From: Candidatus Limnocylindria bacterium
GTDB taxonomy: Bacteria > Patescibacteriota > Saccharimonadia > Saccharimonadales > JAGQNK01
DNA: 64,000 bases
Direction of reading: 5' to 3'
NCBI GenBank assembly: GCA_035489815.1
Contig: DATHJH010000018.1
Location: 3,027-67,026 of the forward strand
Shown: in pieces, positions 19,167 to 53,413 of the stretch
Numbering within the stretch: position 1 is the first letter of the stretch
Layout of the letters: the number at the start of each line of letters is the position of its first letter
Position numbers and translations under genes: made by a program
Notes under the pieces: generated by a model
The model's input: only the letters and a program-made list of their open reading frames with translations
What the model was told of the DNA's origin: nothing
The model's database searches: none

Positions 19167-19176
19167 TGGAGGGCCA
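19167..19176. repeat. att-like core TGGAGGGCCA (candidate left end of the composite island)
   Basis: Matches the tRNA-Lys 3'-end core TGGAGGGCCCA (53337-53347) and the copy at 26033. Coincides with a visible drop in GC. Confidence 0.4.
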
Positions 19177-19336
19177 CCGAGGAAGTAAGTTATATATTTT
19201 GGCCGATGAACTGATGCGATGGAGGTCGCTGCTAGATACCAGGTTTGTGCAGTATAAGATGGATAAGCGACGCACGAAAGAGTTATATTCCCTGTAAGGG
19301 TTATGGTACCACACTTAGGGCGTATACTGGATTATA

Positions 19337-19837
19337 GTGGAGAATAATAATATATCCCTCGCAGCAGCAATTATTGCAGCAATCTCACTGACCGTATCTT
19401 GGCTAAATTACAGGCGAGATAAGCCGAATGCAAAAGTAATTGTATTCAAAACAGCGCTTATAGGAGGTTCGAGGAATACTGAGCCGCACACCTCGATTAA
19501 CATAACAAACACTGGCCGCCGTCAGCTTACCATAACAGCTATCGGATACCGTATGTTTTGGCGGCCCCAGATGTCTATGGTGCTTCCTAACGCCCCGAAT
19601 ATACCCAAGAAGCTAACGGAAGGAGACAGCATAGTATGTCTCTTAAAGAAAGTAAACGCTTTAGAAAATAGCTCATGGAAAGGAGTAGCCTATGTATTCG
19701 CTTCCGATAGTGCGGGCAAAGAATATCATTGCAATATCGCTCCATCTTATAAAGTCTGGGTATTCAAACTGTATGGCCACCTTATAAACCCTTTACGCAG
19801 GGTAATTGGTAGTTTTAAGCAAAAGGATGACGACTGA
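19337..19837 (+). CDS. Membrane-anchored hypothetical protein
   Basis: GTG start, N-terminal TM (ISLAAAIIAAISLTVSWL). Confidence 0.45.
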   Translation: MENNNISLAAAIIAAISLTVSWLNYRRDKPNAKVIVFKTALIGGSRNTEPHTSINITNTGRRQLTITAIGYRMFWRPQMSMVLPNAPNIPKKLTEGDSIVCLLKKVNALENSSWKGVAYVFASDSAGKEYHCNIAPSYKVWVFKLYGHLINPLRRVIGSFKQKDDD

Positions 19838-19840
19838 GCG

Positions 19841-20437
19841 CTATGCAGATGCCTTAAGCGCAGCCCTCCCAAGCAGCCACAACGAACACACAAACACAAT
19901 TAACTCACGCGGAATATAAACTCTGACACCTGGAATACTATGCACAATCGGCAAAGCACTAATGATAACGGTAGTTACAATCAAGACAATCAATATATAG
20001 TCGAACCGAGCTAAGCCACCTTGTTTTATGAGCCACCATATAGTGGCCAATATACAGATTGTTAGAGCAATCGCAAAACCCCAGTGCGTTGCATAGACAG
20101 TGTGATTGAGTGAATATGACGTGACCGCTACTCCGGTCATACAAGCGGCAAATGCGTAAAAGAACATACTAAGCGACTTTTTGATTAACCTTAGCCGCCA
20201 GCCAATCAGTGCTGTCAAGATAATCGTAATCCCAAAACCGAAGTAATAAGGAATGTAAGTGGACGAAACAGAGCCAAAGTAGCTAACGCCGTATTCATAA
20301 TGCTGAAATACTTCCGGATACAACAATATGCAAATCGCCGCCGTACCAACAAAACTAATGCCAGCACCGATGAGGCAACGTTTGACAAATAGAGAGGCAG
20401 ACTGCCCATTGCCTTTCGTTGCCGTACTCCCACTCAT
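19841..20437 (-). CDS. Multi-pass membrane protein (about 6 TM)
   Basis: 198-aa hydrophobic ORF. Its ATG overlaps the stop of the upstream nucleotidyltransferase gene (ATGA). Confidence 0.55.
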   Translation of the reverse strand: MSGSTATKGNGQSASLFVKRCLIGAGISFVGTAAICILLYPEVFQHYEYGVSYFGSVSSTYIPYYFGFGITIILTALIGWRLRLIKKSLSMFFYAFAACMTGVAVTSYSLNHTVYATHWGFAIALTICILATIWWLIKQGGLARFDYILIVLIVTTVIISALPIVHSIPGVRVYIPRELIVFVCSLWLLGRAALKASA

Positions 20438-21147
20438 ACAATTTCCACATTACCTTGTGCATTAAACACCGCCAGTATCTTTGGCTCAATAAAGGTATCG
20501 AGTAGCGATATATTCTCAAACAGCACATCAATGCTTGGCACCTCGCCGTCTTTACGCTGTGCGTATGCCGCTTCAATTACGCGACGATACTCCGGCTCCA
20601 CAACAAGCTCACCTGAAAGCTCGTAGATTTCCTCGTAGCCAAGTGGGAATGTTTTAAGCTCAAGTATTTCAAGGCAGCGCAGCCCAAAAAGACACGACTT
20701 ACTAAACTCCTCCATGCTTGTCTGCATATCACCAGTTCGGTAAGACAATATAGCGGCAAGTGCCATGCCTATGTCGAAGCGCAAACGCTGTATGAGGTCA
20801 AGTATGGTAATAGGCGGCGGAGGGATTTGCTCAACAAGATGCTCTCCAGCAATGGTCTGACCGCCCTTAACAATTTCACGCATATAAATAGACTTTTGGA
20901 ATACATGACCAAAAGTGCCGCGCGATAACTCTCCCCACTTGAAAGGGTACGTCTTAACCTGTGGATTTGATATGGCAGCATGAATGTTGCTACGCTGCAC
21001 ATATTTGTCATCATCAAAAATAACGCCGATTTCATAGTCACTGTCGGGCTTAGCGTCGCCACGACCACGCGAACCATACAGAAAAACGGACTTAGGCTTA
21101 AATTGTGCAAGCTTATCCAGCGTATCAGTAATTATGGTGTCATTCAT
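20434..21147 (-). CDS. Pol-beta superfamily nucleotidyltransferase (KNTase/MNT-like) with helical C-terminal domain
   Basis: FLYGSRGRGDAKPDSDYEIGVIF matches the GSxxxGx(5)SDxD/E NTase motif. The C-terminal half is predicted to be helical. Confidence 0.7.
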   Translation of the reverse strand: MNDTIITDTLDKLAQFKPKSVFLYGSRGRGDAKPDSDYEIGVIFDDDKYVQRSNIHAAISNPQVKTYPFKWGELSRGTFGHVFQKSIYMREIVKGGQTIAGEHLVEQIPPPPITILDLIQRLRFDIGMALAAILSYRTGDMQTSMEEFSKSCLFGLRCLEILELKTFPLGYEEIYELSGELVVEPEYRRVIEAAYAQRKDGEVPSIDVLFENISLLDTFIEPKILAVFNAQGNVEIV

Positions 21148-21161
21148 TTTTCTATAATACC

Positions 21162-22631
21162 TTACGCCAATAAGAAATACTCTAGCGGCACATACAGCAC
21201 CTTGTTGGCTGTGTCTACCGACAATGGACGGTCAGTTACAACCATGCCGTACTTACCATTCAAGTCTTCCAGCGTCTGTACAGCCTGTCTGTTGGTCGTC
21301 TTCTTCACGCCAACCTCAAGCGACATTGCGTCTTTCTTCTCGCCGGTAGCAGAAATGATGAAGTCAGCACCGCCTTTGGCAGTATCGTACTCAACAACAG
21401 CCTTTTTTTGAGCGTCAATAAATATCCGTTTCAGGTACATGCCTACAATGTCTTCTAGAAGTTGGCCGCGCAGCTTCGACCTGCTATCATCCTCAACTTT
21501 TATTGCGCCACCGCTATTCACTAGAGCCAAGCGCATGGCCGGAGATGTGAACAAGTATTTGTACGGCTTAGTAACCCTACCAAAGCTGGCACCCTTTGGC
21601 TTGATAGCGGTCACTATCTCTGTTTTCTCCAATTCGTCAAAGATACTTCGTACAGTTCTGATGTGAATACTAAGCGTACGCGACAGCGAATCCATGCTTA
21701 TCTGTTCTGAGTGTGCCAGTATGAAAAGCAGCCTGGGTAGTATGGCTACTGTTTGCTTATCGAATTTAGCCAACGCATCCACATCGCGGGCAAGCACTTC
21801 GCTAAGAGTCTGATAAATACGCGCCCAGATGACAGATTCGTTTGGAAGCGTGAGAGTAAAGGGCAATGTGCCATACGAGAAGTATTTTTTGATTAAATCT
21901 GCCTTATCGAGACCCTTCCAATACTCTTTAACCCCCGGTTGTAGTGCAGCAAGCCCGGTATACACTTGCGTGACGTTCTTTGAGTTAAACAGAGCCTCAC
22001 GGACTCCACTGCCGACACCCTTAACAGGGTATTTTATGCGCTGGTCGTGATGAGCCTGTTCCATCATTACGAACTCGGTAAAACAAAGTGGATGTATCTT
22101 TATCACATCAGAGCGCCGTGCAATATCGGGGTTAGTTTGTAGCATTATGGCGGATGAGCCAGTACAGATTATGAATAGTTTCTTAGCTCGGTCAGAGATT
22201 GTCTTAAGTACCAAAGCCCAGTCGTCCAGGTACTGCACTTCATCTAACAAAATAAATACCGGCTTTTCGCTATCTTCAATCTTGCCCCCGATAACTTCCT
22301 CGATTACGGCGACAACATCTATCATGCGTCCACCTACGGATTTAACCTTATCAAGTGATAGGTAGAACTTCTGGAATGGCTCTAACTCAGGGCTATTGTA
22401 GAGCTGTGTCAGCATCGTAGTCTTACCCGTACCGCGCAAGCCAGGCATCACAATCCACTCCCTTGAGGTAGTCCCAGCCAAGAACTGACGTACATGTTGC
22501 TGCACGTCCAGAAATGCCCGGCGCTGTATTCCACTATTAGCAGTATTGGCACGCATCCACTCCAACGCACTCACTGGAGCTTGGACCAACATTTCAACTA
22601 GGTATTGCTTTATCTCAGGGGTCATATTCAC
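21162..22631 (-). CDS. AAA_14-type ATPase with DUF4143-like C-terminal domain
   Basis: Walker A GLRGTGKTTML and Walker B ILLDEVQYL. The length and C-terminal region are typical of the AAA_14+DUF4143 family. Confidence 0.8.
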   Translation of the reverse strand: MNMTPEIKQYLVEMLVQAPVSALEWMRANTANSGIQRRAFLDVQQHVRQFLAGTTSREWIVMPGLRGTGKTTMLTQLYNSPELEPFQKFYLSLDKVKSVGGRMIDVVAVIEEVIGGKIEDSEKPVFILLDEVQYLDDWALVLKTISDRAKKLFIICTGSSAIMLQTNPDIARRSDVIKIHPLCFTEFVMMEQAHHDQRIKYPVKGVGSGVREALFNSKNVTQVYTGLAALQPGVKEYWKGLDKADLIKKYFSYGTLPFTLTLPNESVIWARIYQTLSEVLARDVDALAKFDKQTVAILPRLLFILAHSEQISMDSLSRTLSIHIRTVRSIFDELEKTEIVTAIKPKGASFGRVTKPYKYLFTSPAMRLALVNSGGAIKVEDDSRSKLRGQLLEDIVGMYLKRIFIDAQKKAVVEYDTAKGGADFIISATGEKKDAMSLEVGVKKTTNRQAVQTLEDLNGKYGMVVTDRPLSVDTANKVLYVPLEYFLLA

Positions 22632-22808
22632 TATGGTACTCTACTGCCATAGTCCTGTCAATACCTATGGCACTGTAATGCCATAGAGGCAGTTTTACAC
22701 AGATATAACAGATACGGCAGCCAAAGTACGTCTGTAGCATTAAAGCTTGTCAAATAGCATCATACACAGCTCAAACGGGATTTTTAAGGTAAGCCTTGAG
22801 TCATCTCG

Positions 22809-23063
22809 ATGGCGACTATATGCTTAGGCTATATGGAAGTGCTATCACAGGCAGCAAAGAACCGAACCGATATGGCCAGGATAAAGCAGCTTTACGCCAC
22901 AGGCACAATCACACGGCCACAGGCAAAAGCAATGGCACAGCCGATACTGGATAGAATCAACAAAAGTACGGCAACAAAAACAGCCGAGCTTAACCGCAAA
23001 TACGATTTACGTCGCAAGCCTGCACTACTAAGCTTCGTAAGCGCCATGCGCAACGAGTACTAA
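22809..23063 (+). CDS. Hypothetical small protein
   Basis: 84-aa ORF. No motif recognised. Confidence 0.35.
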   Translation: MATICLGYMEVLSQAAKNRTDMARIKQLYATGTITRPQAKAMAQPILDRINKSTATKTAELNRKYDLRRKPALLSFVSAMRNEY

Positions 23064-23065
23064 GC

Positions 23066-23344
23066 GTGGCAATCACCCGTCTACCACCTAATACAACAGA
23101 CACAAGTACACTTACCTGCGCAATTTGCAGCGTCCAGCTACCACTTTCCAAAGCCACTGCCGGATTACTAAACGGAAAAGGCTACCAGGCATTCGCTTGC
23201 GTATCCCACTTTAGCGAAGTTGAAAAGCTCATTAGCGGCTGGGCTGATTTTATGGCGATTGAACGGTACAAGTACCTGCGCGAAGACCAAGAACCTCAAG
23301 CCTTAATATATGGAGCAGACCGTCTTGCACGGTTTGATTCTTGA
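23066..23344 (+). CDS. Hypothetical small protein with Cys/His cluster
   Basis: GTG start 3 nt after the previous stop. CAICS...ACVSH may form a zinc site. Confidence 0.4.
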   Translation: MAITRLPPNTTDTSTLTCAICSVQLPLSKATAGLLNGKGYQAFACVSHFSEVEKLISGWADFMAIERYKYLREDQEPQALIYGADRLARFDS

Positions 23345-23771
23345 AGAACACTCATTTGGTGCTAACCCTGGCACAAAAGACCTAGCGCGACACTTATTTA
23401 CTAGAATGTACTGCGGCAAAGTGGTTATTATCGCCAACAATCCACTGGGAACACTGGCAGCACTACGCAAGCAGTGGCTGAAATTAGCACGAAAAGCACA
23501 GAAAGAAACAGCGAGTACCCTGAACGCTACCAGAACCTACGAGCTTAACCAGTTAATCATCAAAATGCACACGTTACAGTTCACCGCTAAGTGGCCGCAG
23601 ATAGATTACCCGGCAGATGTGTATGTGATTAGTGTTCAGCAGGCGCTACAATGGCCGCCAGAGCCAAGCTGCCGCACCCTTTACGTCACTTGCGATACCG
23701 AACGGCTATACCTGACTACGAGTTGGCTAGATACAGGCGGGTTGGTAGTCATATGCAAGTTAGCCACTTAA
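23310..23771 (+). CDS. Hypothetical protein, paralog of 27644-28018
   Basis: C-terminal CRTLYVTCD...GGLVVI aligns with CRTMYIACN...GGTVVI of the module-B ORF. Confidence 0.45.
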   Translation: MEQTVLHGLILEEHSFGANPGTKDLARHLFTRMYCGKVVIIANNPLGTLAALRKQWLKLARKAQKETASTLNATRTYELNQLIIKMHTLQFTAKWPQIDYPADVYVISVQQALQWPPEPSCRTLYVTCDTERLYLTTSWLDTGGLVVICKLAT

Positions 23772-23793
23772 TTCCTGCTGCTATACTTAAAAG

Positions 23794-24024
23794 GTGAAAA
23801 AGACTAAAGAAGTTATCTTAAATATCATAAAGTTGGGCGTGCTTTTTTTTGGTATTACAAGAGTATTCAGGGGATTTGAGTTGCTGGCTAGTGAAGATGA
23901 CTTTTATCTTGGCACTACTTTGATACTGTTTTGGGGCATTGTAGTCATTGGACTCATCTATTTTGAACGAAAGAAAAAGAAAAAACAGGAAGAAAAAGAG
24001 CGAATAGCTTACTGGGGAGAGTAG
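23794..24024 (+). CDS. Small 2-TM membrane protein
   Basis: Two hydrophobic segments and a KKKKKQEEKE tail. Confidence 0.45.
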   Translation: MKKTKEVILNIIKLGVLFFGITRVFRGFELLASEDDFYLGTTLILFWGIVVIGLIYFERKKKKKQEEKERIAYWGE

Positions 24025-24280
24025 CTGACTTTCTATTCAGAATGTATTTTATTCCACTACAAATATGTGTTGCATAAGGGTGTTTGCAAGTTTTACACTT
24101 CCTACAGCGCTTCCATAGGGGCTTAAAGCTTTAACACTCTCATTAAAATAAGAACTAAAGTCATCGGGTTAAATCTACCCAGCGTTCCAGCCTACTTAGT
24201 TCTGAGCAGCACACCTTAAATATCGCCACACTAGCGTCTGGTGTTATTTGTTGTGGGTTGCAGAGAGAGTGGTGCAAATC

Positions 24281-24418
24281 ATGCCCCAGGAGCATGAATC
24301 CTTAAAACAAAAAGTGACAAAAGCAGAATATAACCAGGCCTTCGACGAGTTGGCTGCTTTGCTATTCCGGCAATACAGGAAAAAGAAGCAAGCAGAATTA
24401 ACCAACGATTCCCCTTGA
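24281..24418 (+). CDS. Possible 45-aa protein upstream of recombinase A
   Basis: Translates as MPQEHESLKQKVTKAEYNQAFDELAALLFRQYRKKKQAELTNDSP. Below the ORF-track cutoff. Its position is analogous to the small ORF upstream of recombinase B. Confidence 0.25.
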   Translation: MPQEHESLKQKVTKAEYNQAFDELAALLFRQYRKKKQAELTNDSP

Positions 24419-24470
24419 CATGTTGAATGTATTGTTTCAGAAAGTATAATTACATGCAGGAGCAGCCCAA

Positions 24471-26156
24471 ATGGTTATAAAAAGAGAGAAAGCAATCGCG
24501 CTATGTCGCGTATCAACAAAAGGTCAATTACTAGACGGCAACCTTGAGCCACAAACAGAAAGCGTTAATAAGGCAGCAGGGCTACTTAATGTAGAACTCG
24601 CTAAGATTTGGGCGCTGGCCGTATCAAGTCGTAAAGGCAAGAACCTACAGCGCAAAGACCTGCTAGAGATGCTGGAGTATTGCAAACGCTACAGGTCGGT
24701 AAAGTACCTTATCGTAGACGAGGTAGACCGTTTTATGCGCTCAATTAAGGAATACTACTGGTGGAAAGTAGAGTTTGAAAGGGTCGGCGTCCAGATTCGC
24801 TTTGCTATACACCCCCTTGTTGACCCTGAAGAAGACCGTGCCGTTTTCGATGAGCTTATTGACATCTACCGTGCAGAGCAGAGTAACAACGAGCGCATCA
24901 AAAAGACGCCAGAAAAAATGATGGCAAAAATAAGAGCCGGGTACTTCCCGAGCAACCCACACACAGGCTACAAGATTTCTGATATTCCTGGCTTGCATGT
25001 TCCCGATGAGCCAAACTGGTCTGCCCTGCGCAACGCCTTCAAAGCCATGATTGCTGGCGAATGTGATATTAGTGAAGGTCTAAAACGTGCCACAAGTGAC
25101 GGTCTGCGCACAAAGAATTACGGACCAAAAGCAGTGGGCGGCAAAAAGATAGATATGTACCGATGGAAATACCTGATGACCGATGACTACTACTGTGGCA
25201 CTGTGAGGCTTGCAGATTGGCCGGAAGTAAATCCAAACGGTTTGCACCAGCCCATGATTACGCCGGAGGAACATACGGTCTTAGTTGCATTGGTCAAGAA
25301 TAAGGGCAAATGCTTCATTGTAAATCGCAACAACCCAGATTTTCTACTATCCAACGAAACCGAATGTGCAGACTGCGTCCTAAGCAATGCCCCATACCCC
25401 AGACTGGTCGGCTACTGGCAGAATAACGGCAAGGCAAAGGGCTATAAACGGTATAGACGCTACCGATGCCGCTCCTGCAATCTTGGAGTAAGACAGGAGG
25501 CACTTCATCAAGGACTGACCGGTGAATTGGCGCAACTGACCCTCACACAACTACAAAAAGAAAAACTGAAAGAACATCTACGCAGGGTTTGGTCTGCTTA
25601 CGAGACCGAGCGCATTGAAAGAGCCAGAATCGCATTAGGTAAGGCGCAAATCCTCAAAGACCAAAAAGCCAACGCTATGGATAGTTACCTAGCAGAACAA
25701 GACCCAAGCATGAAAACAGACATTAAGGAAAAGGTCGAAGCAATAAAGGCCGACATCATCGAAGCCGAAAAAGCTGCCGCAGAAGCACAGAACTTTGAGC
25801 GAGACTTTAGCGAGTTCATTGATTTCGCCTTTGACCTTATGGACAACCTTGATACCGAATGGTGGCAGCAGGACAAGGCAACGATGCGGTTATATAAACA
25901 TATCCTGTTTCCGGCCGGAATACAGCTTACTCAGGAGAAAAAAGTTTATATACCTCAAATTAGCGTCATTTATTCCTATGGAAATGAAAAACAGCCCCCA
26001 AAGGAGGCTGAAGTTACTAAAGTGGAGGGCCCAGTGGGACTCGGTCACGTCCCGCGACCCCGGAACTTCGCGATTGCCAACCAGTTGGCATCGGAAGATT
26101 CCCTTGCGAACAGCCACAGGCTGTTCTCACCCACGACACCCTTTGGCGTGTCGTGA
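24471..26156 (+). CDS. Large serine recombinase (integrase A)
   Basis: N-terminal resolvase motif AIALCRVSTKGQ, a recombinase domain, a Cys-rich zinc-ribbon region (CADC...CRSC) and a C-terminal coiled coil. The last codons read through the tRNA-like sequence. Confidence 0.9.
   Translation: MVIKREKAIALCRVSTKGQLLDGNLEPQTESVNKAAGLLNVELAKIWALAVSSRKGKNLQRKDLLEMLEYCKRYRSVKYLIVDEVDRFMRSIKEYYWWKVEFERVGVQIRFAIHPLVDPEEDRAVFDELIDIYRAEQSNNERIKKTPEKMMAKIRAGYFPSNPHTGYKISDIPGLHVPDEPNWSALRNAFKAMIAGECDISEGLKRATSDGLRTKNYGPKAVGGKKIDMYRWKYLMTDDYYCGTVRLADWPEVNPNGLHQPMITPEEHTVLVALVKNKGKCFIVNRNNPDFLLSNETECADCVLSNAPYPRLVGYWQNNGKAKGYKRYRRYRCRSCNLGVRQEALHQGLTGELAQLTLTQLQKEKLKEHLRRVWSAYETERIERARIALGKAQILKDQKANAMDSYLAEQDPSMKTDIKEKVEAIKADIIEAEKAAAEAQNFERDFSEFIDFAFDLMDNLDTEWWQQDKATMRLYKHILFPAGIQLTQEKKVYIPQISVIYSYGNEKQPPKEAEVTKVEGPVGLGHVPRPRNFAIANQLASEDSLANSHRLFSPTTPFGVS
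26033..26152 (-). repeat. tRNA-Lys 3'-fragment (att junction) split by an 85-nt insertion at the T-loop
   Basis: 26033-26053 is identical to 53337-53357 (21 nt) and 26139-26152 is identical to 53359-53372 (14 nt). The single A of the intact gene is replaced by 26054-26138. Confidence 0.85.
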
Positions 26157-26177
26157 GTTCAAGACGCAATAAAACAA

Positions 26178-26218
26178 CCACGAAAAAAGCCGACCGCGAG
26201 GGTCGACTGTTTTCGTGG
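26178..26218 (+). terminator. Terminator-like hairpin after integrase A, overlapping another TGGAGGGC core
   Basis: CCACGAAAA (26178-26186) pairs with TTTTCGTGG (26210-26218), with inner stem CGACC/GGTCG. TGGAGGGC lies at 26215-26222. Confidence 0.4.
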
Positions 26219-26358
26219 AGGGCTCACATATACTTTTTTGAAACCCCAGCCTAACGATGATCTTATTAAAGATTTGATCTTACTATATACCAGGTTGGTT
26301 GATCTCGGTATGGAGTATCGTAACGGCAAGGTCTATCTCGCAGACTTGGAGGAAAAGG

Positions 26359-26829
26359 ATGTTTAGGCGACGTGCGTTTCCCACTTCAAGTCTCTATGAT
26401 CATGATACGTTTTATAAGGCATTCATGCGAGATATGAGTCACGCAAGAAAGCAACTCATCATAGAAAGTCCGTTTATCACAAGCAAACGGGTGTATAGGT
26501 TATTGCCGATCTTGAAAGATTTACGAAAGCGCGGTGTTGAAATTATTATCAATACCCGCGATCCCGAAGAACACGATGATGAGGCATACCAGGTACAAGC
26601 CGCCGAAGCTGTGGCATTGTTTCATATGTTAGATATAGTGGTACTCCATACTGGTAGACTCCACAGAAAGTTAGCTATCATAGACGGCCAAATTGTATGG
26701 GAGGGCAGCCTGAACATATTATCGTTTAGTGATAGCTGTGAGATAATGAGGCGGATTCACTCAGACGTAGAGGCGCGTACGCTCATTGCCTTTATTAAGC
26801 TAGAGAAGTTTACAGGACTCACATCATGA
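26359..26829 (+). CDS. PLD-family (HKD) nuclease, Nuc-like
   Basis: HKD motif HRKLAIIDGQIVWEGSLN. GGAGG RBS lies before the ATG at 26359. Confidence 0.8.
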   Translation: MFRRRAFPTSSLYDHDTFYKAFMRDMSHARKQLIIESPFITSKRVYRLLPILKDLRKRGVEIIINTRDPEEHDDEAYQVQAAEAVALFHMLDIVVLHTGRLHRKLAIIDGQIVWEGSLNILSFSDSCEIMRRIHSDVEARTLIAFIKLEKFTGLTS

Positions 26830-27050
26830 TCAATTCGGACAACTTCAAGCGACCAGATATACACGACGAGGAGTTGATCGCCAAGACGATGAACTACCTA
26901 AAATATCATGATCCAGAGAATGCAACCCGCGAGGATGCTATCTCTCTGCTGGCGTTCATGCAAACTGTCGCTAAAGAAGTTGCAGAAACAATGAGCGCAG
27001 ATAGTTTTGATGATTACTACAAAGCCTACAAAGAACATCAGTCAAAGTAG
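26826..27050 (+). CDS. Hypothetical small acidic protein
   Basis: 74-aa ORF with a 4-nt overlap with the PLD gene stop. Confidence 0.45.
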   Translation: MINSDNFKRPDIHDEELIAKTMNYLKYHDPENATREDAISLLAFMQTVAKEVAETMSADSFDDYYKAYKEHQSK

Positions 27051-27064
27051 TAGTCCTGTCAGAC

Positions 27065-27289
27065 TTACAGCCCCTTAAAGAGCTGCTCTAACGACATGCC
27101 AAGCGCATGTGTCAGTTTGTCCAATGTAGATACCGTAGGTCGGCGGCGTCCTTGTTCAATAAATCCAATATGTGCACTAGCTACCCCGCTCTCGGCTGAG
27201 AGTGCTTCTTGCGACCATCCCTTTTTGGTTCTGGCGGCATAAAGACGCTTGCCAATCTTTTGGTATAAGGTGTCCAGGCGCTTAGTCAT
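27065..27289 (-). CDS. XRE-family helix-turn-helix regulator
   Basis: GWSQEALSAESGVASAHIGFIEQGRRRPTVSTLDKL is a typical HTH_XRE sequence. Confidence 0.85.
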   Translation of the reverse strand: MTKRLDTLYQKIGKRLYAARTKKGWSQEALSAESGVASAHIGFIEQGRRRPTVSTLDKLTHALGMSLEQLFKGL

Positions 27290-27304
27290 TACCTAAAGCG
27301 TATG

Positions 27305-27339
27305 ACTAACATAAGTTAGTGACCACTAACAAATGTTAG
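27305..27339. promoter_or_regulatory. Two CTAAC-N4-GTTAG palindromes (putative operators)
   Basis: ACTAACATAAGTTAGT (27305-27320) and CTAACAAATGTTAG (27326-27339), immediately upstream of the XRE gene start. Confidence 0.55.
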
Positions 27340-27643
27340 GGCTTGTTATTATTTTTGCGACACAATATACTACCAATAAGTCCCGAAAAAGAGGGGCCAA
27401 AATTGATAAGACCTAAACCATATTTTGTGTGGCATGGTCTAAAATCCCTGATAGATACTGATCCCGTCGTTCAGCATCTATCAGGTCATGCGCCGAAAGG
27501 TTCATGGGGCGAGAGCCCGCTGGCGGCGGGCTTTGTGGTTTCGCCACCAATAACCTGATAGAAAACTATGAGAAAACGACTCCATACAGTCGCTATGGCT
27601 GTATTTTTTATGCCAAATTTTCGCCAAATGGACGGAGTGGGCC

Positions 27644-28018
27644 ATGCACAGCCTGAGTATTGAGCGCCGGAAAGCCGGTAGCAACAGCTCTTTGCCTGGA
27701 GATATAGCCTACCAGCTACGCACCCGGCTCGCTTCTGGCAAAGTCTGCGTAGTAACGGATAGGCCCAAGGACATGGTGGCCGCAGTCAAAAAACAATGCC
27801 ACAAAACTACCCGTTTGCGACAGTTACGCTTCGTGGCTAATCCTAATGATGATTTCACAGGTACGGACATCGGCTTTGTGACGCCAGCCCAAGCGCTGGG
27901 CTATGCCCCTGAGTGCCGAACTATGTATATAGCCTGCAACGTCCAAAAGGATAAGCTCCACTTTATGACTGCCATGATGCCGCCCGGCGGAACGGTGGTA
28001 ATCTATGATGCTAACTAG
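27644..28018 (+). CDS. Hypothetical protein, paralog of 23310-23771
   Basis: See the paralog entry. The shared C-terminal block is visible by eye. Confidence 0.45.
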   Translation: MHSLSIERRKAGSNSSLPGDIAYQLRTRLASGKVCVVTDRPKDMVAAVKKQCHKTTRLRQLRFVANPNDDFTGTDIGFVTPAQALGYAPECRTMYIACNVQKDKLHFMTAMMPPGGTVVIYDAN

Positions 28019-28471
28019 CGATTTTATTGCTTGTGTAGTGCGAGAAGATGGGCCATGTCCTTTTTGCCAGTATCCGCCCCAGGTAAATAGGAAGAAGCCT
28101 GTACTTTCTGCAAAAGACGCCCTCGTTTACCTTGAACATTTTAGGGATAAGAAGCAAGAGTTCATTGTTTGCCTGTCGCTGGATATTAGACAGCGTCTTA
28201 TTACTCGACGCATTGTATTCATAGGCTCACACTTACGGCCAGCATAGTCCACCCACGCGAAGTATTTGCCGACCCCCTAAATGACCGCGCGTGTTCGGTG
28301 ATCATTGCCCACAACCATCCTTCGGGCGAAACTACGCCAAGTGAGGCTGACATTAAAGTCACTCAGCAGCTCGTGGCTGCCGGGCAAATCCTGGGTATTC
28401 CCCTTGACGATCACATCATAGTCACGAAGGATGACTATTTCAGTTTTAAGGCCAATGGATTGATGATCTAA
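28005..28471 (+). pseudogene. radC: RadC-like JAB/MPN protein, frameshifted
   Basis: Frame 1 (28005-28247) ends ...LITRRIVFIGSHLRPA-stop. The next frame continues VHPREVFADPLNDRACSVIIAHNHPSGETTPSEADIKVTQQL...stop at 28469-28471. A single missing base near 28245 would restore a normal RadC. Confidence 0.75.
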
Positions 28472-28576
28472 TGGTGTTTTTTCCTGTAAGCTAATTGCTA
28501 ACACCTGACAACAGGGATGAAAAGGAGTAAACTTATCATGAATATATTGTCCAATATATAAGGGAGCCCGAAAGCG

Positions 28577-33551: not shown

Positions 33552-34015
33552 GCCCCTGCCTCCACTCTAACATCTACAAAGTTACCATTTATCTCCTCAT
33601 CTGCGTTCATCCAAATCTTTAGGGGTACGGCTTTGTAAATTCGTCGTGGACAGTCGCCAAGATACTGTTTGCCGTCTGATGGGTTGTAAGGATCATTTTT
33701 GAAAACCAGGGCAGCTTGCATGACTTCTTGCTCCTCGCTTAATTCAACGGCTTCAGCTTGAATATAGACTCCGCCTGAAGGCTTATCACCAGCAGGCGTT
33801 GAATCGTAGATAGCAATAAACACGCGGCCATTGCTTTGAATATTCTTGGAGTGTTGGTTATCAGTCCATGACGCCCAATAAAACGTATAGTCATTGTCAA
33901 AGCGGAAGCTGGCTACTGGCGTGTTCCAGGGTTGACCGTTTTCATCAACAGTAGCAAGGGTGATGTACTTTATCTGGTCAACTACTTCTCTGGCTGTTTG
34001 GTTGGGCGTGACCAT
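33548..34015 (-). CDS. Pyridoxamine 5'-phosphate oxidase-family (PNPOx-like) protein
   Basis: ITLATVDENGQPWNTPVASFRFDNDYTFYWASW is a split-barrel pattern. Confidence 0.65.
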   Translation of the reverse strand: MVTPNQTAREVVDQIKYITLATVDENGQPWNTPVASFRFDNDYTFYWASWTDNQHSKNIQSNGRVFIAIYDSTPAGDKPSGGVYIQAEAVELSEEQEVMQAALVFKNDPYNPSDGKQYLGDCPRRIYKAVPLKIWMNADEEINGNFVDVRVEAGA

Positions 34016-39822: not shown

Positions 39823-40316
39823 CGCCCTTCTTCCTTCTAAAAGCCATGCGCTCCACCAAGAAGGAAGTTGCTATTGTGCTGGTTTCGATGAGCGTCATTA
39901 TGGCGCTACCTATTGCCGCCGTTTCTACGACTACCAATTTGAAAGTATTGGCAGAAACGCCACTCAAGCTATTTACCGGCACGGCTTCGACTAACAACAC
40001 CTACGATTACGGCTATTGCACCTTTTGGGCGGCACAACGCCGAGCCGAGACGGGCCACCCCATTCCGAACACTTGGGGTGACGCCCATACATGGGATGAT
40101 CGTTCCAAAACGGACGGCTATTTAGTGGATCACCTACCTGCTGTCGGTGCCATCATGGAATCCGACGCGGGCATATGGGGACATGTAGCCTATGTAGAAA
40201 AAGTTAATCCAGACGGGAGCTGGGAAGTGTCCGAAATGAACGTCAAAGGCTGGGATATTTTGAGCAGCCGGACATTCAGCGCCGCGCAGGCGCAGGACTA
40301 CAAGTTCATTCACTGA
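39819..40316 (+). CDS. CHAP-domain peptidoglycan hydrolase
   Basis: Cys motif YGYCTFWAAQRR and His motif GHVAYVEKV...VSEMN, with an N-terminal anchor. Confidence 0.8.
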   Translation: MTPFFLLKAMRSTKKEVAIVLVSMSVIMALPIAAVSTTTNLKVLAETPLKLFTGTASTNNTYDYGYCTFWAAQRRAETGHPIPNTWGDAHTWDDRSKTDGYLVDHLPAVGAIMESDAGIWGHVAYVEKVNPDGSWEVSEMNVKGWDILSSRTFSAAQAQDYKFIH

Positions 40317-40317
40317 T

Positions 40318-47668: not shown

Positions 47669-49012
47669 TCAGGCTGAGTTACTGAACCTACTGGCTTGTT
47701 GTATAAGAGTAATTAGATCTTCTTCTTTAAAATAGGCGTAATTAAAGGAGAATAAAATTTCCTTCATTACCTCAAGAGTAATTTTGTTTCGGGCTTCCAT
47801 GCTGTCAAGAATGTTTGTATCGATCTTTCTCCTGACAAGGTATCGGCCGATTATATTTTGAGGCAGACGGTGGGCATCATAGGGAAAATGATAAGCGCCA
47901 GTCTTATAGAGCATGCAATTCTTCTCGCCCTCAAACTCAACCCTTAGTTGCAAGTTTCCAACGATGCCAATTTTAGAGTAATACTGTTGAGCGAATCTCA
48001 GGACGCCGTCTATACAGGTGACGATATTAGTAATCTCCACAATCGGATGCTCTATGCCCCTATCTGATTTGTGATGCTTTTCTATGGGGTCAACATTCAT
48101 AAGGTTACCGTAGATATCAGCACCGAAAAAGTAATGATGGTTTGTACGTTCATCCTTGTAATGTGTCGAAGCTCCGTACTGGTAAATGGGTACGCCACCA
48201 CGGGAATCTGGCGTTTGGTTACGGTAGTCATTCAAGCCGTTGCTGATGGGTTCGTGGAGGAGGGCACGTTGCACTGTGGCCGTGTCAGTTGCGGGGTTCT
48301 GCGGGTACTCTGGCAATAAAGTAATGATTTGAGTTCCATCAAAATGCCGTCCCTCAAAATAAATGCTGGGGCTTGCCATTGCCATCACAAGGCCCGGCTG
48401 CAAGTTAGCTTCCTCTTTTTTGTCGTCTTCCTCGTCCTGATAATCAGCTCGCGCTTCAAAAATATCCTGCAAGAGATCAGCTAGTTCGCCTCTCAAGTCT
48501 ACGCTGGCCTGTCGTCTATTCCGCAATAGCTCCCACTCATGACTTGAGGCGTACTTTTCCCAATCCTCGCTTCTTGACCGATCGGCGACGCGCGTAAAAA
48601 GTATGTTCTTGCCTTTATAGTCCATCCAATGTGGAGTAGAGGAACTTTGTGGCATGTAGGCAACGACGAATGCTTTTGTGCCATCGTCGGATAGGCAAAC
48701 TTGATAAAAGGGTAAAACGATGGGACTTACTGTACTCACTATTGAGTTGTTTATTTTCTGGACATGGTTGTCTTCAAAATCCATGCCAGTAACCGGCAGC
48801 TTGGGCTTATCATCTTCATCATCAACACCAATAATCAGCCAACCGCCATTTGTGTTCGCGAAAGACACAAGTGCCTTTACGACGTTAGAAAGAGAACTTA
48901 AATCCCTTTTGTAGTCTAGGCTCAAGCCTTCGGTGATTCGCTGGTCGCAAAAACTAACAATGTCCGCAAAAGTGACATCCTTGAGGGCTTTACCGAAGAT
49001 ACTTGTATCCAT
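47669..49012 (-). CDS. AlbA_2/Schlafen-like divergent AAA domain protein
   Basis: N-terminal EGLSLDYKRDL...VKALVSFANTNGGWLIIGVDD is typical of the AlbA_2 domain. The C-terminal two-thirds are uncharacterised. Confidence 0.6.
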   Translation of the reverse strand: MDTSIFGKALKDVTFADIVSFCDQRITEGLSLDYKRDLSSLSNVVKALVSFANTNGGWLIIGVDDEDDKPKLPVTGMDFEDNHVQKINNSIVSTVSPIVLPFYQVCLSDDGTKAFVVAYMPQSSSTPHWMDYKGKNILFTRVADRSRSEDWEKYASSHEWELLRNRRQASVDLRGELADLLQDIFEARADYQDEEDDKKEEANLQPGLVMAMASPSIYFEGRHFDGTQIITLLPEYPQNPATDTATVQRALLHEPISNGLNDYRNQTPDSRGGVPIYQYGASTHYKDERTNHHYFFGADIYGNLMNVDPIEKHHKSDRGIEHPIVEITNIVTCIDGVLRFAQQYYSKIGIVGNLQLRVEFEGEKNCMLYKTGAYHFPYDAHRLPQNIIGRYLVRRKIDTNILDSMEARNKITLEVMKEILFSFNYAYFKEEDLITLIQQASRFSNSA

Positions 49013-49211: not shown

Positions 49212-49526
49212 ATGGATACAGCGGGTGCAGCAAAAGTTGCGCGTCTCAATGACGTGTTTCGGCGTGAGACGTCTGCGATCATGCTAACGCAGGGTGTAGA
49301 GGTGCTGAGTGACTTGTCCGGGTTGGTCGAAGAAGTGCGGCGGTTCGATAAGTTCACCGGGGCAAATGACCCGCACGGTGAGCATGACTTTGGCCAGATC
49401 GCCTGGGATGGTGAAAAAGTTTTCTGGAAGATTGACTACTACGATGAGTGGCTTCAGTACGGTGAAGATCCTTTGTCGCAAAAGTGTCACCGGATACTCA
49501 TCGTTATGCTGGCTGGCGAGTACTAG
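49212..49526 (+). CDS. DUF3768-family protein
   Basis: NDVFRR...LTQGV...DPHGEHDFG...WKIDYYD pattern. AGGAGG RBS. Confidence 0.7.
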   Translation: MDTAGAAKVARLNDVFRRETSAIMLTQGVEVLSDLSGLVEEVRRFDKFTGANDPHGEHDFGQIAWDGEKVFWKIDYYDEWLQYGEDPLSQKCHRILIVMLAGEY

Positions 49527-50200: not shown

Positions 50201-50929
50201 CTAGGCCAAAATGTCCTTAACCTGGCCTGAAACTGCTCGGATTCGGATGTCGGATTCATCGAGATACTTGTCCTCAAGCTGTTGCTTTATATACCAATCA
50301 AGCTGTTTTCTTTCACTTTCACGGCTCCGGACAATAACAACCTCCGGATACTTGTCACCTTCCCAATTATCAGACTCATAGTGCTGGATGTATCTCCTGA
50401 TCCTTTTCTTTGCCAGGAACAAGTGCTGCCCATCGGTAAGTTCAATGAACGACTGTTTACCTGTTGTCCGGTTTTGAACATAGAGGCCTGGGTATGGCCA
50501 TATAAAGCCCTTCAGCGTCCCCATCTCGGTGGCCGTGAGGGCTACCAGCTCATCTGAGGCTGTATCTTTAATGTCCAGATAAAGCTTAAACAACTCAACC
50601 TGTAAGTCTATGAAATCCGTACTCTTTTCGGCCTCGCGTCTGCGGGTCAGCAGTACCTTCTTGCTTAAGCCGTGCTCTTTGCCGGATAGAAACTTTACCG
50701 CGTCCGGGGTCAAGTAGTACCTGGCTGATTTACCGGCGAACTTGTAAGACTTATCATACAGCTTACCGAGATAGCCGGTTTCGTTCAGTATTGTTAGCGC
50801 GCTGTATGCTGAGTTGTGCGTAATGTTGAGTCTTCTGGCTAGGTTGTTTGTTGTTAGGTATCTGAATTTGTAGGTTAGTTTGAGGATGTGTATTTGTTTG
50901 TCGTTGAGCTTTGATTTATGGGAGGTCAT
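50201..50929 (-). CDS. Winged-helix protein, replication-relaxation-like (candidate relaxosome/replication protein)
   Basis: N-terminal wHTH-like HILKLTYKFRYLTTNNLARRLNITHNSAYSALTILNETGYLGK. The family assignment is tentative. Confidence 0.45.
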   Translation of the reverse strand: MTSHKSKLNDKQIHILKLTYKFRYLTTNNLARRLNITHNSAYSALTILNETGYLGKLYDKSYKFAGKSARYYLTPDAVKFLSGKEHGLSKKVLLTRRREAEKSTDFIDLQVELFKLYLDIKDTASDELVALTATEMGTLKGFIWPYPGLYVQNRTTGKQSFIELTDGQHLFLAKKRIRRYIQHYESDNWEGDKYPEVVIVRSRESERKQLDWYIKQQLEDKYLDESDIRIRAVSGQVKDILA

Positions 50930-51129: not shown

Positions 51130-51210
51130 ACAGAGTTAGCTAAAGTTACTAGCTCCTTAATAATTCGACTAGACAACTAAAGGAACGTAATTACTAAATT
51201 GTCGTTAAGA

Positions 51211-51236: not shown

Positions 51237-51440
51237 ATGACAAATCAGAAACGTGTAAAGTTCCAGATAGATACTCTCGAAACAGTGCGTGATCGTGCTA
51301 AAGCCGTAGCCTATAGTCGCGGCAAGCAGCTCAATGAGTTTGTGTTAGAAGCGTTGGCCAAAGAGGGCGATAAAGAACTTACCGATCTCATTAAAAAAGA
51401 CCTGGCAGCAAAACAACGCCCAGGTCGCCCACAAAAATAA
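51237..51440 (+). CDS. Ribbon-helix-helix (CopG/Arc-like) DNA-binding protein
   Basis: KRVKFQIDTLETVRDRAKAVAYSRGKQLNEFVLEALAKEG fits a beta-strand/helix/helix RHH pattern. Confidence 0.6.
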   Translation: MTNQKRVKFQIDTLETVRDRAKAVAYSRGKQLNEFVLEALAKEGDKELTDLIKKDLAAKQRPGRPQK

Positions 51441-51491
51441 CTCTATTTAGTGTTCTAGTCGAATTATTAAGGAGCCTTGACGAGGGTAAAT

Positions 51492-51683
51492 ATGTCGAGG
51501 CCAAAGGGCAGCAAGAATAAAATACGACGAGTGCCTACCGAGCAGTTTAGTTACACCACTGAGCAGCGTATCGAGCTAATTGCTGACCTTATTGTTGAAA
51601 AGATCATCGAAGACCAGCGTAACGGTAAGCATTTAATCAATTTCCTGGAGGGGACAAATGCGGCCACAGCAACTCAGCAGTAA
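51492..51683 (+). CDS. Small basic protein upstream of integrase B (possible excisionase/accessory factor)
   Basis: Translates as MSRPKGSKNKIRRVPTEQF.... The ORF track starts it at the TTG at 51477. Function is inferred from position only. Confidence 0.4.
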   Translation: MSRPKGSKNKIRRVPTEQFSYTTEQRIELIADLIVEKIIEDQRNGKHLINFLEGTNAATATQQ

Positions 51684-53394
51684 AATGCGGAATGGTCTGC
51701 TGGCTATTCGTGTTTCGTCAGATAAACAGGGTCGCGATGGCGATTCGCCAGAAGAACAACGCCAGCGGGGCGAAAACCTTGCGACCACTAATAATATCAA
51801 AATTATTGATACGGCTATTCTGGTTGAGTCGGCTTCTCACGAAGATCAACCAATGCAGCAAATCGTTGAGCGATGTAGGGCAAATCCTGCTATTGAGGTT
51901 GTACTGATTAAAGCTATTGACCGTTTTACGCGGGGCGGTTCTGGAGCATACATCAAGCTAAAAGAGCAGCTTGATAGTCTGAATGTTATTCTTATTGATA
52001 CCTTTGGCATTATTGATAGTCGTCGCGTAAATACTCTTGAGCACACTGGCTTTACATACTATTGGAGCGATTATAGCCCTTCATTTAAGAGCGAGATACT
52101 GGAGGCTGAACACGCCAAAGACGAGCTGCGCGACATTATGACTCGTATGATCGGTGCAGAAATTCGTTATACCCAACTAGGCTACTGGATGCGCCAGCCG
52201 CCATATGGCTTTGCAAGTGAAATAGTTGAAACTAATCACGGCAAACGCGCTATATTGAAGCCGCACCCCGAAGAAGCACCATTTATAATTCGTGTGCTTG
52301 AAATGCGCGCGCAAGGTATTTATAGCAACCAGGAAATTGCTGATGAGTTAAACCGGCTGGGCTTTAAGACGCGCGTTACTTATGTGCGCGATAAATACGA
52401 TCGCTCAAAAGTAAAACGCATTCTTGGCGGCAAGCCAATGGACGTCAAAATGGTTGACCGTATTACGCGTAGGCTCATATATGCCGGTGTTATCAAAGAG
52501 AAATGGACAAACGATAAGCCAATTAAGGCGCAGTTTGACGGTCTGGTATCACCAGAACTGTTTAATCGCGCTAATCACGGCAAGCTCATTATCGAGATAG
52601 CGGCTAGTAATGAAGCTACCGTACGCCACAAGCTGCCCCCTAAGTGGCAGCAGGTAAAAAAGATGATTAACCCAAAGTTTCCGTACAAGAAAGTCATAGC
52701 TTGCCCGCATTGCCGCAAGCCGTTAAGTGGCAGTGCAGCACGCGGTAAACTTGGCAAATACTACCCGGCCTATCATTGTAGTCGTGACGGTCATTATTTC
52801 CGTGTCCCGCAGCCGGAGTTTGACGCGACAATCGAGCGTTTTGTTAAAAGTATCGAGGTTGCGCCGGAGCACATTGATAAGCTCCTGGAAAAGATCGAGG
52901 AATCATGGCGGGCAAAGCAACAAAAGTCCGTTCAAGACGATCAAAACCTCATAGAGCAGCGTCAGGCACTTGAAGCCCAAATCAGGATTGTGGTAGACCG
53001 AATGAAAGTTGTAGCCAGCGAAACGGCCATTAAGTACATGGAGGAGGACATTGTGAGCGCAGAGAGTCAGATCAAAGAGCTAGATAATCAGCTAGTCAAT
53101 AAGAACGAAAATGCCGTTGATATTGACCTCGTGTTGCAATACGCAGAATACCTTTTGAAACACCTATCAGAACTGCTGCTTGACCTCAGTAATCCACTCA
53201 GAAAAGCTGCCTTTTTCGGCGTCATCTTCAACACTATGCCAAGTTACGCAGATTTAGATTTTGAAACCCACGAAAAAAGCCCGCTACCAGGGGTAAACGG
53301 ACTCTTTCGGATAGCAGCTGCTACCAAATCTACTTCTGGAGGGCCCAGTGGGACTCGAACCCACGACACCCTGCTTAAAAGGCAGGTGCTCTAA
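51658..53394 (+). CDS. Large serine recombinase (integrase B)
   Basis: GGAGGGG RBS, resolvase motif LLAIRVSSDKQG, a recombinase domain, zinc ribbon CPHC...HCSRDGH and a coiled coil. The last 58 nt of the ORF (53337-53394) overlap the tRNA-Lys gene on the opposite strand. Confidence 0.9.
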   Translation: MRPQQLSSKMRNGLLAIRVSSDKQGRDGDSPEEQRQRGENLATTNNIKIIDTAILVESASHEDQPMQQIVERCRANPAIEVVLIKAIDRFTRGGSGAYIKLKEQLDSLNVILIDTFGIIDSRRVNTLEHTGFTYYWSDYSPSFKSEILEAEHAKDELRDIMTRMIGAEIRYTQLGYWMRQPPYGFASEIVETNHGKRAILKPHPEEAPFIIRVLEMRAQGIYSNQEIADELNRLGFKTRVTYVRDKYDRSKVKRILGGKPMDVKMVDRITRRLIYAGVIKEKWTNDKPIKAQFDGLVSPELFNRANHGKLIIEIAASNEATVRHKLPPKWQQVKKMINPKFPYKKVIACPHCRKPLSGSAARGKLGKYYPAYHCSRDGHYFRVPQPEFDATIERFVKSIEVAPEHIDKLLEKIEESWRAKQQKSVQDDQNLIEQRQALEAQIRIVVDRMKVVASETAIKYMEEDIVSAESQIKELDNQLVNKNENAVDIDLVLQYAEYLLKHLSELLLDLSNPLRKAAFFGVIFNTMPSYADLDFETHEKSPLPGVNGLFRIAAATKSTSGGPSGTRTHDTLLKRQVL

Positions 53395-53413
53395 CCGGCT
53401 GAGCTATGGGCCC
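53337..53413 (-). tRNA. tRNA-Lys (anticodon UUU) with encoded CCA
   Basis: Reverse complement folds as GGGCCCA-TA-GCTC-AGCCGGTTA-GAGC-A-CCTGC-CTTTTAA-GCAGG-GTGTC-GTGGG-TTCGAGT-CCCAC-TGGGCCC-T-CCA. All four stems are perfect. Confidence 0.92.

Follow-up and report, generated by a model that had tools for sequence, protein, structure and literature searches.

Two large serine recombinase genes in a Saccharibacteria contig read through sequence that resembles the 3′ end of a nearby tRNA-Lys(UUU) gene, which raises the questions of how many elements have inserted at this site, where their ends lie and why the recombinase reading frames contain the insertion site. The window analysed here is the whole 64,000-nt stretch of this contig, and the region concerned spans positions 18376-53413. 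We consider it probable that this region is a tandem array of integrative elements, built by serial insertion at the 3′ end of tRNA-Lys(UUU), with the attachment (att) core inside the open reading frames (ORFs) of the integrases. For comparison, 23 loci were fetched (L-numbers, e.g., L005) and homologous database proteins were given P-numbers (e.g., P0127); homologue shares and percentages for IntA, IntB and VirB4 refer to 120 listed homologues per family, the 120 best in the case of IntA and IntB.

Stacked elements at the 3′ end of tRNA-Lys(UUU)

From left to right, the array consists of a remnant of 775 nt (E0, 18392-19166), element A of 6.85 kb (19176-26022), a mini-element X of 172 nt (26044-26215) and element B of 27.1 kb (26224-53336), followed by the tRNA gene (Table 1). 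An earlier note on this DNA had described two islands at this tRNA, and ARAGORN and Rfam placed the intact minus-strand tRNA-Lys exactly where that note had put it. The 21-mer TGGAGGGCCCAGTGGGACTCG from the tRNA 3′ end occurs in exactly two copies, at 53337-53357 and 26023-26043, and none of 100 shuffles contained any match. The claim of an exact 21-nt repeat thus stood, with its second copy moved from 26033-26053, and the 8-nt core of the note was found at 26216-26223 rather than 26215-26222. A 16-mer from the tRNA end gave three matches with up to 3 mismatches against 0.4 expected; the sole further one is the degenerate 14/16 copy a0, as had been proposed. The first 9 nt of the left 21-nt copy (a1) represent the attR core of A and the whole of a1 is the left repeat of X, while the attR core of B is the final 8 nt of tRNA-Lys (53337-53344).

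The ends of B are defined by two relatives. L005, which has no integrase at this place, matches window positions 26023-26223 and then runs from TGGAGGGC straight into its own tRNA-Lys; the window therefore equals an L005-like state plus 26224-53336. On contig Ga0558094_0001256 (L021/L022) there is an independent 19-kb B-type element without X and with a direct repeat of exactly 8 nt. Its order is TGGAGGGC, the same left end and exon, a PLD nuclease, a type IV secretion cluster, small ORFs, the integrase and again TGGAGGGC at the start of tRNA-Lys. Taken together, these loci set B at 26224-53336, bounded by 26216-26223 and 53337-53344.

The left boundary of A follows from L009, L010 and L011, whose A-type elements align from window position 19167 at their left ends and all begin with TGGAGG. 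The repeat shared by the A left end and the tRNA end is 6-7 nt long in these loci and 9 nt in the window. The short core at 19167 given by the earlier note is the left junction of A, ending at 19175 instead of 19176. All three loci have ComEC/YebC as neighbours, as the window does, and in each of them the A-type integrase overlaps an intact tRNA-Lys(UUU). Position 19167 might be taken for a chance match, as it is the start of a conserved small ORF and the 19-nt repeat of L009 lies further out. Against this stand the frame relation described below, the variable base before TGGAGG and the mini-element of L009.

These junctions change the two-island picture. At least three elements are stacked and an older remnant lies at 18376 besides; the 21-nt repeat is not an island junction and belongs to X, which is found on its own at other tRNAs. 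The short cores, which the earlier note had allowed might be chance matches, are the junctions of A (19167) and B (26216), as seen from L005, L021/L022 and the A-type left ends. Of the accretion proposed there, the stacking and A before B as the simplest order hold; the left junction of B is the 8-nt core and not the 21-nt repeat. The idea of a regenerated tRNA 3′ end lost ground, as no more than 6-9 nt of that end recur in A and B and little regeneration is needed.

The copy a0 and E0 mark a remnant older than A. The single ORF of E0 had no Pfam family, no PADLOC match and no homologue in the fetched loci, and L010 repeats the layout with a degenerate tRNA end, a minus-strand ORF and then an A-type left end. 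Minus-strand terminators adjoin the repeat copies at 18376, 26023 and 26216, and each element has a terminator just inside its right end, positioned to stop the tRNA transcript; the one beyond a0 is probably the original chromosomal terminator of tRNA-Lys. The presence of A and B at the same tRNA varies among relatives (L001, L003 and L005 vs. L009, L010, L011 and L022).

Integrases of two families end in antisense tRNA

As the earlier note had stated, the two ORFs at 24471-26156 and 51658-53394 are serine recombinase genes that read through tRNA-like sequence. Pfam detected the Resolvase domain PF00239 in both (E=1.5e-10 for IntA and 1.7e-7 for IntB), and both translations contain a serine-nucleophile RVS-type motif (RVST and RVSS in the IntA/IntB translations). 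IntA also has a CxxC...CxxC motif and IntB a Recombinase domain (PF07508). The AF2 model of the A-type homologue P0127 has a canonical large serine recombinase fold to about residue 500. A sequence search of the PDB with P0127 gave no match to any solved structure; the top Foldseek matches of its model are serine integrase-DNA complexes, including those of Bxb1, phiC31 and LI integrase, with full-length complexes 9dxd, 9iu2, 9rah and 4kis matched at E values of 5e-15 to 2e-10. With the fold taken from this P0127 model, IntA and IntB can both be classed as large serine recombinases.

The two proteins are only about 22% identical across 88 residues at the N-terminus and belong to large families, with about 400 homologues of IntA and more than 1300 of IntB. 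Tails encoded by antisense tRNA, such as EGPVGLEPTTPCLKGRCSNQLSYGP or GGPSGTRTHDTLLKRQVL, were found in 99/120 A-family and 113/120 B-family proteins. Because about 210 of these 240 homologues end in this way, insertion at tRNA 3′ ends is characteristic of both families and common in the phylum, and the earlier view of an arrangement that is unusual, also for a reduced genome, does not hold. B-type integrases overlap an opposite-strand tRNA-Lys(UUU) in L006 and L022, tRNA-Lys(CUU) in L007 and tRNA-Glu(UUC) in L008, and the elements at these different tRNAs have different chromosomal flanks. In the literature searched (Saccharibacteria, Candidate Phyla Radiation, Patescibacteria) there was no description of serine integrases at tRNA ends, nor did the searched literature describe a serine integrase whose ORF contains the att site. 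That islands stack at a tRNA gene is nothing special; what makes the locus interesting is that serine integrases occupy tRNA ends and that integration splits an integrase gene.

The C-terminal codons lie at the other end of the element

In both elements the att core is located inside the integrase ORF, and an integrase tail of about 45 codons (43-47) is found at the opposite, left end of the element. The integrated IntB ends in a tRNA-antisense peptide, its stop codon lying within the D-arm complement of tRNA-Lys, and the IntA tail consists of tRNA-like sequence and X. The ORFs read through antisense tRNA because the codons for the true C-terminus are found at the opposite side of the element. 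In 4/4 integrated A elements, the T of TGGAGG falls on codon position 2 whether read from the integrase or from the exon, and the B exon is in frame with its integrase in both B elements available. When the ends of A are joined as excision would join them, an ORF of 560 amino acids (aa) results; for B, a junction of 53344 with 26224 creates a 609-aa ORF with LTYTFLKPQPNDDLIKDLILLYTRLVDLGMEYRNGKVYLADLEEKDV as its last residues before the stop. The detached part begins after residue ~517 in A and ~562 in B.

The exons are conserved as coding sequence. Substitutions in the A exon are mostly synonymous (pS 0.35 and pN 0.07 for L009 vs. L010), and for the B exon the window and L021 differ with pS 0.42 and pN 0.14; judging from these substitutions, both exons are under purifying selection. 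Moreover, the A exon is fused to the integrase in the natural proteins P0127, P0134, P0183, P0185, P0190 and also P0232. Fused ORFs of the B family are P0101 (601 aa, at a tRNA-Glu site) and P0052, which has an A-like EIIRWNRLLG tail, and at the DNA level fusion is seen in L020 (A) and L019 (B). Since the exon is in frame at the far end and fused homologues exist, excision would rebuild a longer integrase. In the AF2 model of P0127 a disordered linker (505-531), which includes the core-encoded residues, is followed by a helix (526-558).

Alternative explanations

If only two islands were present, B would span 26044-53336 between the 21-nt repeats, and the 8-nt and 9-nt cores would be minor features or chance. 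The 21-nt repeat is exact, far beyond chance and placed directly after intA, as this account would have it. Nevertheless, we find the account extremely unlikely: L005 carries the 26023-26215 segment beside its tRNA without an integrase and without B, the same X module stands solitary at tRNA-His and tRNA-Lys(CUU), the independent B-type element of L021/L022 has the 8-nt repeat only and no X, and the conserved left-end exon of B begins immediately past 26223. A different objection concerns the exons, which might be independent small genes, e.g., for excision or directionality factors, that start at the att core, the fusions being functionless by-products of tandem arrays. Serine integrases commonly work together with small directionality factors. 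The five A-type elements have apparent exon start codons TTG, ATG, TTG, GTG and ATG, and with every A exon opening with a usable start codon its independent translation is possible. This start codon varies because the base before TGGAGG is flanking DNA, which places the start codon outside the element; no Shine-Dalgarno sequence can be read before the A exon, and the B exon does not open with a start codon. Two families as distant as IntA and IntB both keep the exon in frame with no stop before the core, and the integrase ORF reads through the core in most listed homologues of either family. On balance, we judge independent small genes to be unlikely.

Several observations count against a mobile array with a split integrase, some of them shared with the rivals. 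The fused ORF of P0101 (L019) stems from a tandem arrangement and not from a circle, which also suits independent genes. Exact reconstituted IntA and IntB were absent from the protein collection, and the P0127 helix is of low confidence (pLDDT 50-62, shallow alignment). For the order of insertion, position and the decay of the repeat copies are the only guides, and the tRNA-like end of X may have been the entry point of A instead. We saw no excised circle and no empty site from this strain. VirB4 is 80-89% identical among its listed homologues, and a type IV secretion operon is conserved in most TM7 genomes (PMC7739484), so that B could be largely fixed and not currently mobile. The last three observations would also suit a region that became fixed in the chromosome long ago, with recombinases that have been domesticated, a secretion system of core function and nothing mobile. 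That the whole region is of this kind appears very unlikely to us, given that relatives differ in whether they carry A and B at this tRNA, that B-type elements occur at different tRNAs with different flanks, that both integrase ORFs and their exons are intact, apparently under purifying selection and accompanied by exact repeats, and that the G+C content of the array departs from that of its flanks. A tandem array of integrative elements thus continues to be the reading that we favour.

A possible role for the split

Under the tandem-array reading, the simplest order of insertion from oldest to youngest would be E0, A, X and B, with crossovers within the short repeats TGGAGGGCC for A and TGGAGGGC for B; the direct repeats at the crossover regions measure just 6-9 nt. 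Integration would keep the catalytic, DNA-binding, zinc-ribbon and coiled-coil parts beside the tRNA and send the last 43-47 codons to the far end, and the chromosomal integrase would then end in a short antisense-tRNA peptide. Either excision to a circle or an adjacent element of the same type would restore the full-length ORF. This anatomy of the split, with the core in the ORF, the relocated tail and the restorable frame, can be read from the DNA itself. The free and the integrated enzyme would differ by a helix, as modelled, tethered on a flexible linker, and the tail may set the activity, stability or direction of recombination. A further step would be to see the exon as a built-in sensor of the integration state, with full-length enzyme formed only in the free or tandem form and the helix altering direction, activity or stability; we put this forward tentatively, as something possible that we would not expect to hold.

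Serine integrases are major tools of genome engineering, and it is normally a second protein that determines their direction. An att site inside the integrase ORF makes the tail dependent on the integration state, which suggests a new and simple principle of control. If true, direction control would be written into the position of att.

Comparison with known systems

Large serine recombinases such as phiC31, Bxb1, A118/LI integrase, TnpX and CcrAB share with the present proteins the resolvase catalytic domain with its RVS motif and, going by the modelled fold of homologue P0127, the Recombinase domain, zinc ribbon and long coiled-coil; integration of the unidirectional type and short identity between sites would also be shared. 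Two properties set the present integrases apart. They target the final 6-9 nt of tRNA genes, where tyrosine integrases are the usual occupants, and the att core lies inside the integrase ORF with the C-terminal ~45 residues encoded at the other end.

In the 'suicidal' integrases of the SSV type (SSV1, pTN3, pT26-2) att is also inside the integrase gene, integration into a tRNA splits the gene and the gene is intact only when the element is free (PMC8371274). Self-splitting integrases are, according to a review, exclusively archaeal tyrosine recombinases, and the SSV-type split parts the catalytic domain from the N-terminal portion, which leaves the enzyme inactive (PMC8371274). Here the enzyme is a bacterial serine recombinase in which the canonical domains stay together and the tail alone is detached. 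The att-in-gene split of that class is present, while the Phage_integr_3 tyrosine type, an archaeal host and a split of the catalytic domain are not. The split works as in SSV-type integrases, yet outside that family. Self-splitting integrase genes are thereby extended from archaeal tyrosine to bacterial serine recombinases and, if the sensor reading is true, the present enzymes would be a serine-recombinase counterpart of the archaeal suicidal integrases.

Work on the mycobacteriophages BPs and Brujita by Broussard et al. in 2013 reportedly described an attP inside a coding sequence, such that integration at a tRNA 3′ end alters the C-terminus and the behaviour of a phage protein. The gene affected there is said to be the repressor, the integrase a tyrosine recombinase and the removed tail a degradation tag. 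The change of a C-terminus through att in a gene is alike, whereas here the affected gene is that of the integrase itself. Stacking has its counterpart in the streptococcal integrative and conjugative elements (ICEs) of the ICESt3 family and their cis-mobilizable elements (CIMEs), which accumulate at one 3′-end site of a tRNA-type or other gene, with gene-less, att-flanked CIMEs beside the conjugative elements; their integrases are tyrosine recombinases. X and E0 beside A and B are comparable to CIMEs, with serine integrases in place of tyrosine ones. X differs from CIMEs in being far smaller (172 nt) and in carrying a conserved, structured 88-nt module.

The tRNA 3′ ends of Saccharibacteria thus appear as hot spots for serine-integrase elements with defence genes and, in two genomes, a secretion cluster, which is of relevance for gene flow and tool building in an ultra-small phylum that is hard to manipulate.

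Mini-element X and related modules

X was found alone beside tRNA-Lys(UUU) in L005, tRNA-Lys(CUU) in L013 and tRNA-His in L012 and L016-L018. All copies have the same order of parts. An exact 21-nt copy of the 3′ end of the local tRNA up to the T loop is followed by the conserved 88-nt core, a second segment (10-13 nt) that matches this tRNA, the inverted complement of that segment, a spacer and a terminator, and the intact tRNA comes last. With 172-191 nt, X has no ORF of its own and no recombination or transfer genes. It is flanked by 21-nt repeats in L005, L012 and L013, and in the window B has shortened the right copy to 8 nt. The repeat of X ends in the T loop, which sets it apart from those of A and B.

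The core folds with 8 pairs showing compensatory changes and 99% of cells paired, and none of 500 shuffles scored as high. An invariant G-U pair points to folding on the tRNA-sense strand. Hand pairing of an extended acceptor-like helix failed across four tRNA contexts. Rfam contained no family for X (at the gathering threshold on the window and at E up to 10 on 25800-26400), ARAGORN found no tmRNA in the window, and viral contigs gave no match to an 18-mer from the core. The covariance model of the core revealed no further copy in L001-L004, L006-L011 or L019-L020, and none of the 23 loci held a full-size element whose left end was of the X type. Because these integrase-bearing loci hold no further copy of the core, X is not tied to a parent element. 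In its architecture X resembles a CIME-type remnant, and its conserved structure is left without an explanation by this likeness.

Modules related to X occur in other settings. In L014 and L015 the core is located between the D-arm and the anticodon stem of a 5′ fragment of tRNA-Lys(CUU). Directly to the left of the A-type element of L009, at 5861-6028, lies a mini-element that starts with a 19-nt tRNA-Lys 3′-end repeat, continues with a hairpin insert of 57 nt and a T-loop-plus-stem fragment together with the inverted complement of this fragment, and closes with a terminator. The right part of this mini-element shares homology with X of the window, and the insert differs.

Genes carried by the elements

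The cargo of A includes a nucleotidyltransferase and an ATPase flagged by PADLOC. The 56-aa ORF immediately upstream of intA, for which no Pfam family was found, is a candidate accessory or directionality protein.

B looks like an ICE with defence cargo (Ppl-type ATPase, DUF2130, PLD nuclease): its gene content includes conjugation machinery, and an integrase and 8-nt direct repeats at a specific site are reproduced in L021/L022. The conjugation cluster encodes a VirB2-type pilin, a protein with a T4SS_pilin domain whose homologues additionally carry TrbL_3, a PrgI-like protein, the VirB4 ATPase (38086-39822), a CHAP hydrolase and a VirD4-like coupling protein (40318-42927). The same secretion cluster lies between PLD and the B-type integrase of L021/L022 (L021 6325-14887). 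Among the Pfam matches in B there was no canonical relaxase family, only Replic_Relax. The right-end module of Replic_Relax, small ORFs and integrase is conserved in L006, L007, L008 and L019; the left end of the L007 element was not located within the fetched locus. The type IV secretion operon described as conserved in TM7 (PMC7739484) is thus found, here and in L021, inside a serine-integrase element with 8-nt repeats at tRNA-Lys. If the sensor reading is true, this operon would travel on such elements.

Between Replic_Relax and the B-type integrase, an inverted repeat of 21-32 nt with a conserved sequence (…CCTTAAYAATTC…CTAG…) brackets at least one small ORF; in relatives it was seen at L006 9174-9205 and 9782-9813 and at L008 9283-9303 and 9788-9808. 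It could be an operator pair, a candidate origin of transfer (oriT) or an invertible segment. A LOOT RNA lies inside B between the regulator with a helix-turn-helix (HTH) domain and small ORFs, and the main text of Weinberg 2017 holds no description of it. Other B-type elements have a reverse transcriptase (L006 605-2168 and L008 425-1540) and, in L006, a bAvd accessory gene, which suggests a diversity-generating retroelement as cargo.

Table 1. Coordinates of the features in the window and of X core copies in other loci
Feature	Position	Strand	Evidence
Intrinsic terminator downstream of a0	18327-18353	minus	terminator scan; same terminator-then-tRNA-end layout in L001, L009
a0, degenerate tRNA-Lys 3′-end copy (14/16), outermost left junction	18376-18391	plus	sole additional 16-mer match; right after terminator
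E0 remnant, 775 nt, one orphan ORF 18513-18998 (minus)	18392-19166		between a0 and A
Detached C-terminal exon of IntA, EGHRGSKLYILADELMRWRSLLDTRFVQYKMDKRRTKELYSL and stop, in frame across core	19166-19297	plus	conserved in L009, L010, L011, L020
attL core of A, TGGAGGGCC, first 9 nt of tRNA 3′ end	19167-19175	plus	aligns with TGGAGG left ends of L009/L010/L011
Cargo of A: orphan ORFs and small ORFs	19337-23771		Pfam, PADLOC
Nucleotidyltransferase (A cargo)	20434-21147	minus	Pfam
AAA_14/DUF4143 ATPase (A cargo), PADLOC candidate PDC-S01	21162-22631	minus	Pfam, PADLOC
56-aa ORF immediately upstream of intA	24248-24418	plus	tblastn; same position in L009, L010, L011
intA, integrated-state ORF; body to core at 26031, then read-through of tRNA-like and X sequence	24471-26156	plus	Pfam Resolvase
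Terminator inside intA 3′ end, oriented to stop a tRNA-strand transcript	25992-26010	minus	same hairpin in L009, L010, L011
a1, exact 21-nt tRNA 3′-end copy up to T loop	26023-26043	plus	compared with L005, L012, L013
X core, 88 nt, three hairpins, at T-loop position	26043-26130	minus	covariance model match, 104 bits
X core, other loci	L005 9540-9628; L013 6366-6454; L012 3516-3603; L014 1596-1685; L015 1060-1149		
Rest of X: tRNA-derived segment CCCACGACACCCT (26130-26142) and hairpin partner, spacer, terminator 26188-26208	26130-26215	minus	comparison, terminator scan
attL core of B, TGGAGGGC	26216-26223	plus	L005 runs from core into tRNA; same 8-nt repeat in L021/L022
Detached C-terminal exon of IntB, GGLTYTFLKPQPNDDLIKDLILLYTRLVDLGMEYRNGKVYLADLEEKDV and stop, in frame across core	26217-26366	plus	aligns with P0101 tail; same exon in L021
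PLD-family nuclease	26359-26829	plus	also in L007 B-type element
HTH regulator	27065-27289	minus	B left cargo (26359-32724)
LOOT RNA, RF03000	27410-27518	plus	Rfam, 66 bits vs. gathering score 46
PHP/SMC-type ATPase, matches PADLOC Ppl	28577-31552	plus	Pfam, PADLOC
DUF2130	31549-32724	plus	also in L007 B-type element
Flavin reductase-like, PNPOx-like and HAD hydrolase genes and one orphan ORF	32973-35091	minus	Pfam
Type IV secretion/conjugation cluster	35210-42927	plus	Pfam
Schlafen/AlbA_2 protein	47669-49012	minus	Pfam
DUF3768	49212-49526		Pfam
Replic_Relax family protein (PF13814, E=6.6e-7)	50201-50929	minus	Pfam
30-nt inverted repeat pair around small ORF 51237-51440	51152-51181 and 51446-51475		repeat sequence conserved in L006, L008
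Small ORF directly upstream of intB	51477-51683	plus	small ORFs of region conserved
intB, integrated-state ORF; body to core at 53344; last 17 codons antisense tRNA-Lys	51658-53394	plus	Pfam Resolvase and Recombinase
tRNA-Lys(UUU), intact, only tRNA of window	53337-53413	minus	ARAGORN; Rfam tRNA, 74 bits

Host, composition and flanks

The sole relatives of the ComEC gene at 54452-55882 are in metagenome-assembled genomes of Candidatus Saccharibacteria (61-66% identity), with a common gene order on both sides. The public record of the contig proteins, in which IntA is HTE22108.1, reads 'Candidatus Limnocylindria bacterium'; the contig is probably mis-binned, given its Saccharibacteria gene content, synteny and all close relatives.

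The G+C content of the array region is 0.40-0.51 vs. 0.53-0.54 in the flanks. To the right it returns sharply to ~0.54 past 54 kb, in line with the earlier note. The drop at 19.1 kb given there was not seen: the profile has no step at that position, and on the left the values fall gradually from ~0.54 (12-14 kb) through 0.49 (14-19 kb) to 0.45 (19-25 kb).

Further to the left, a segment of ~8.6 kb (9770-18375) is missing at the equivalent position in L001 and L005, where the homologue of the gene at 9266-9769 lies only 0.2-1.5 kb from the tRNA. The segment contains ABC ATPase, NUDIX, NADAR and PsbP-like genes, and its G+C content drops from 0.54 to 0.49; the 16-mer scan with up to 3 mismatches found no tRNA-end remnant within it. 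On the other side, the 17-nt 5′ end of tRNA-Lys (53397-53413) has an exact second copy at 53524-53540. The 110-nt segment between the two copies (53414-53523) holds an inverted D-arm fragment and a hairpin. The region 53414-53540 is 77% conserved in L004, with similar structures in L014 and L015, and resembles a mini-element or a scar located 5′ of tRNA-Lys.

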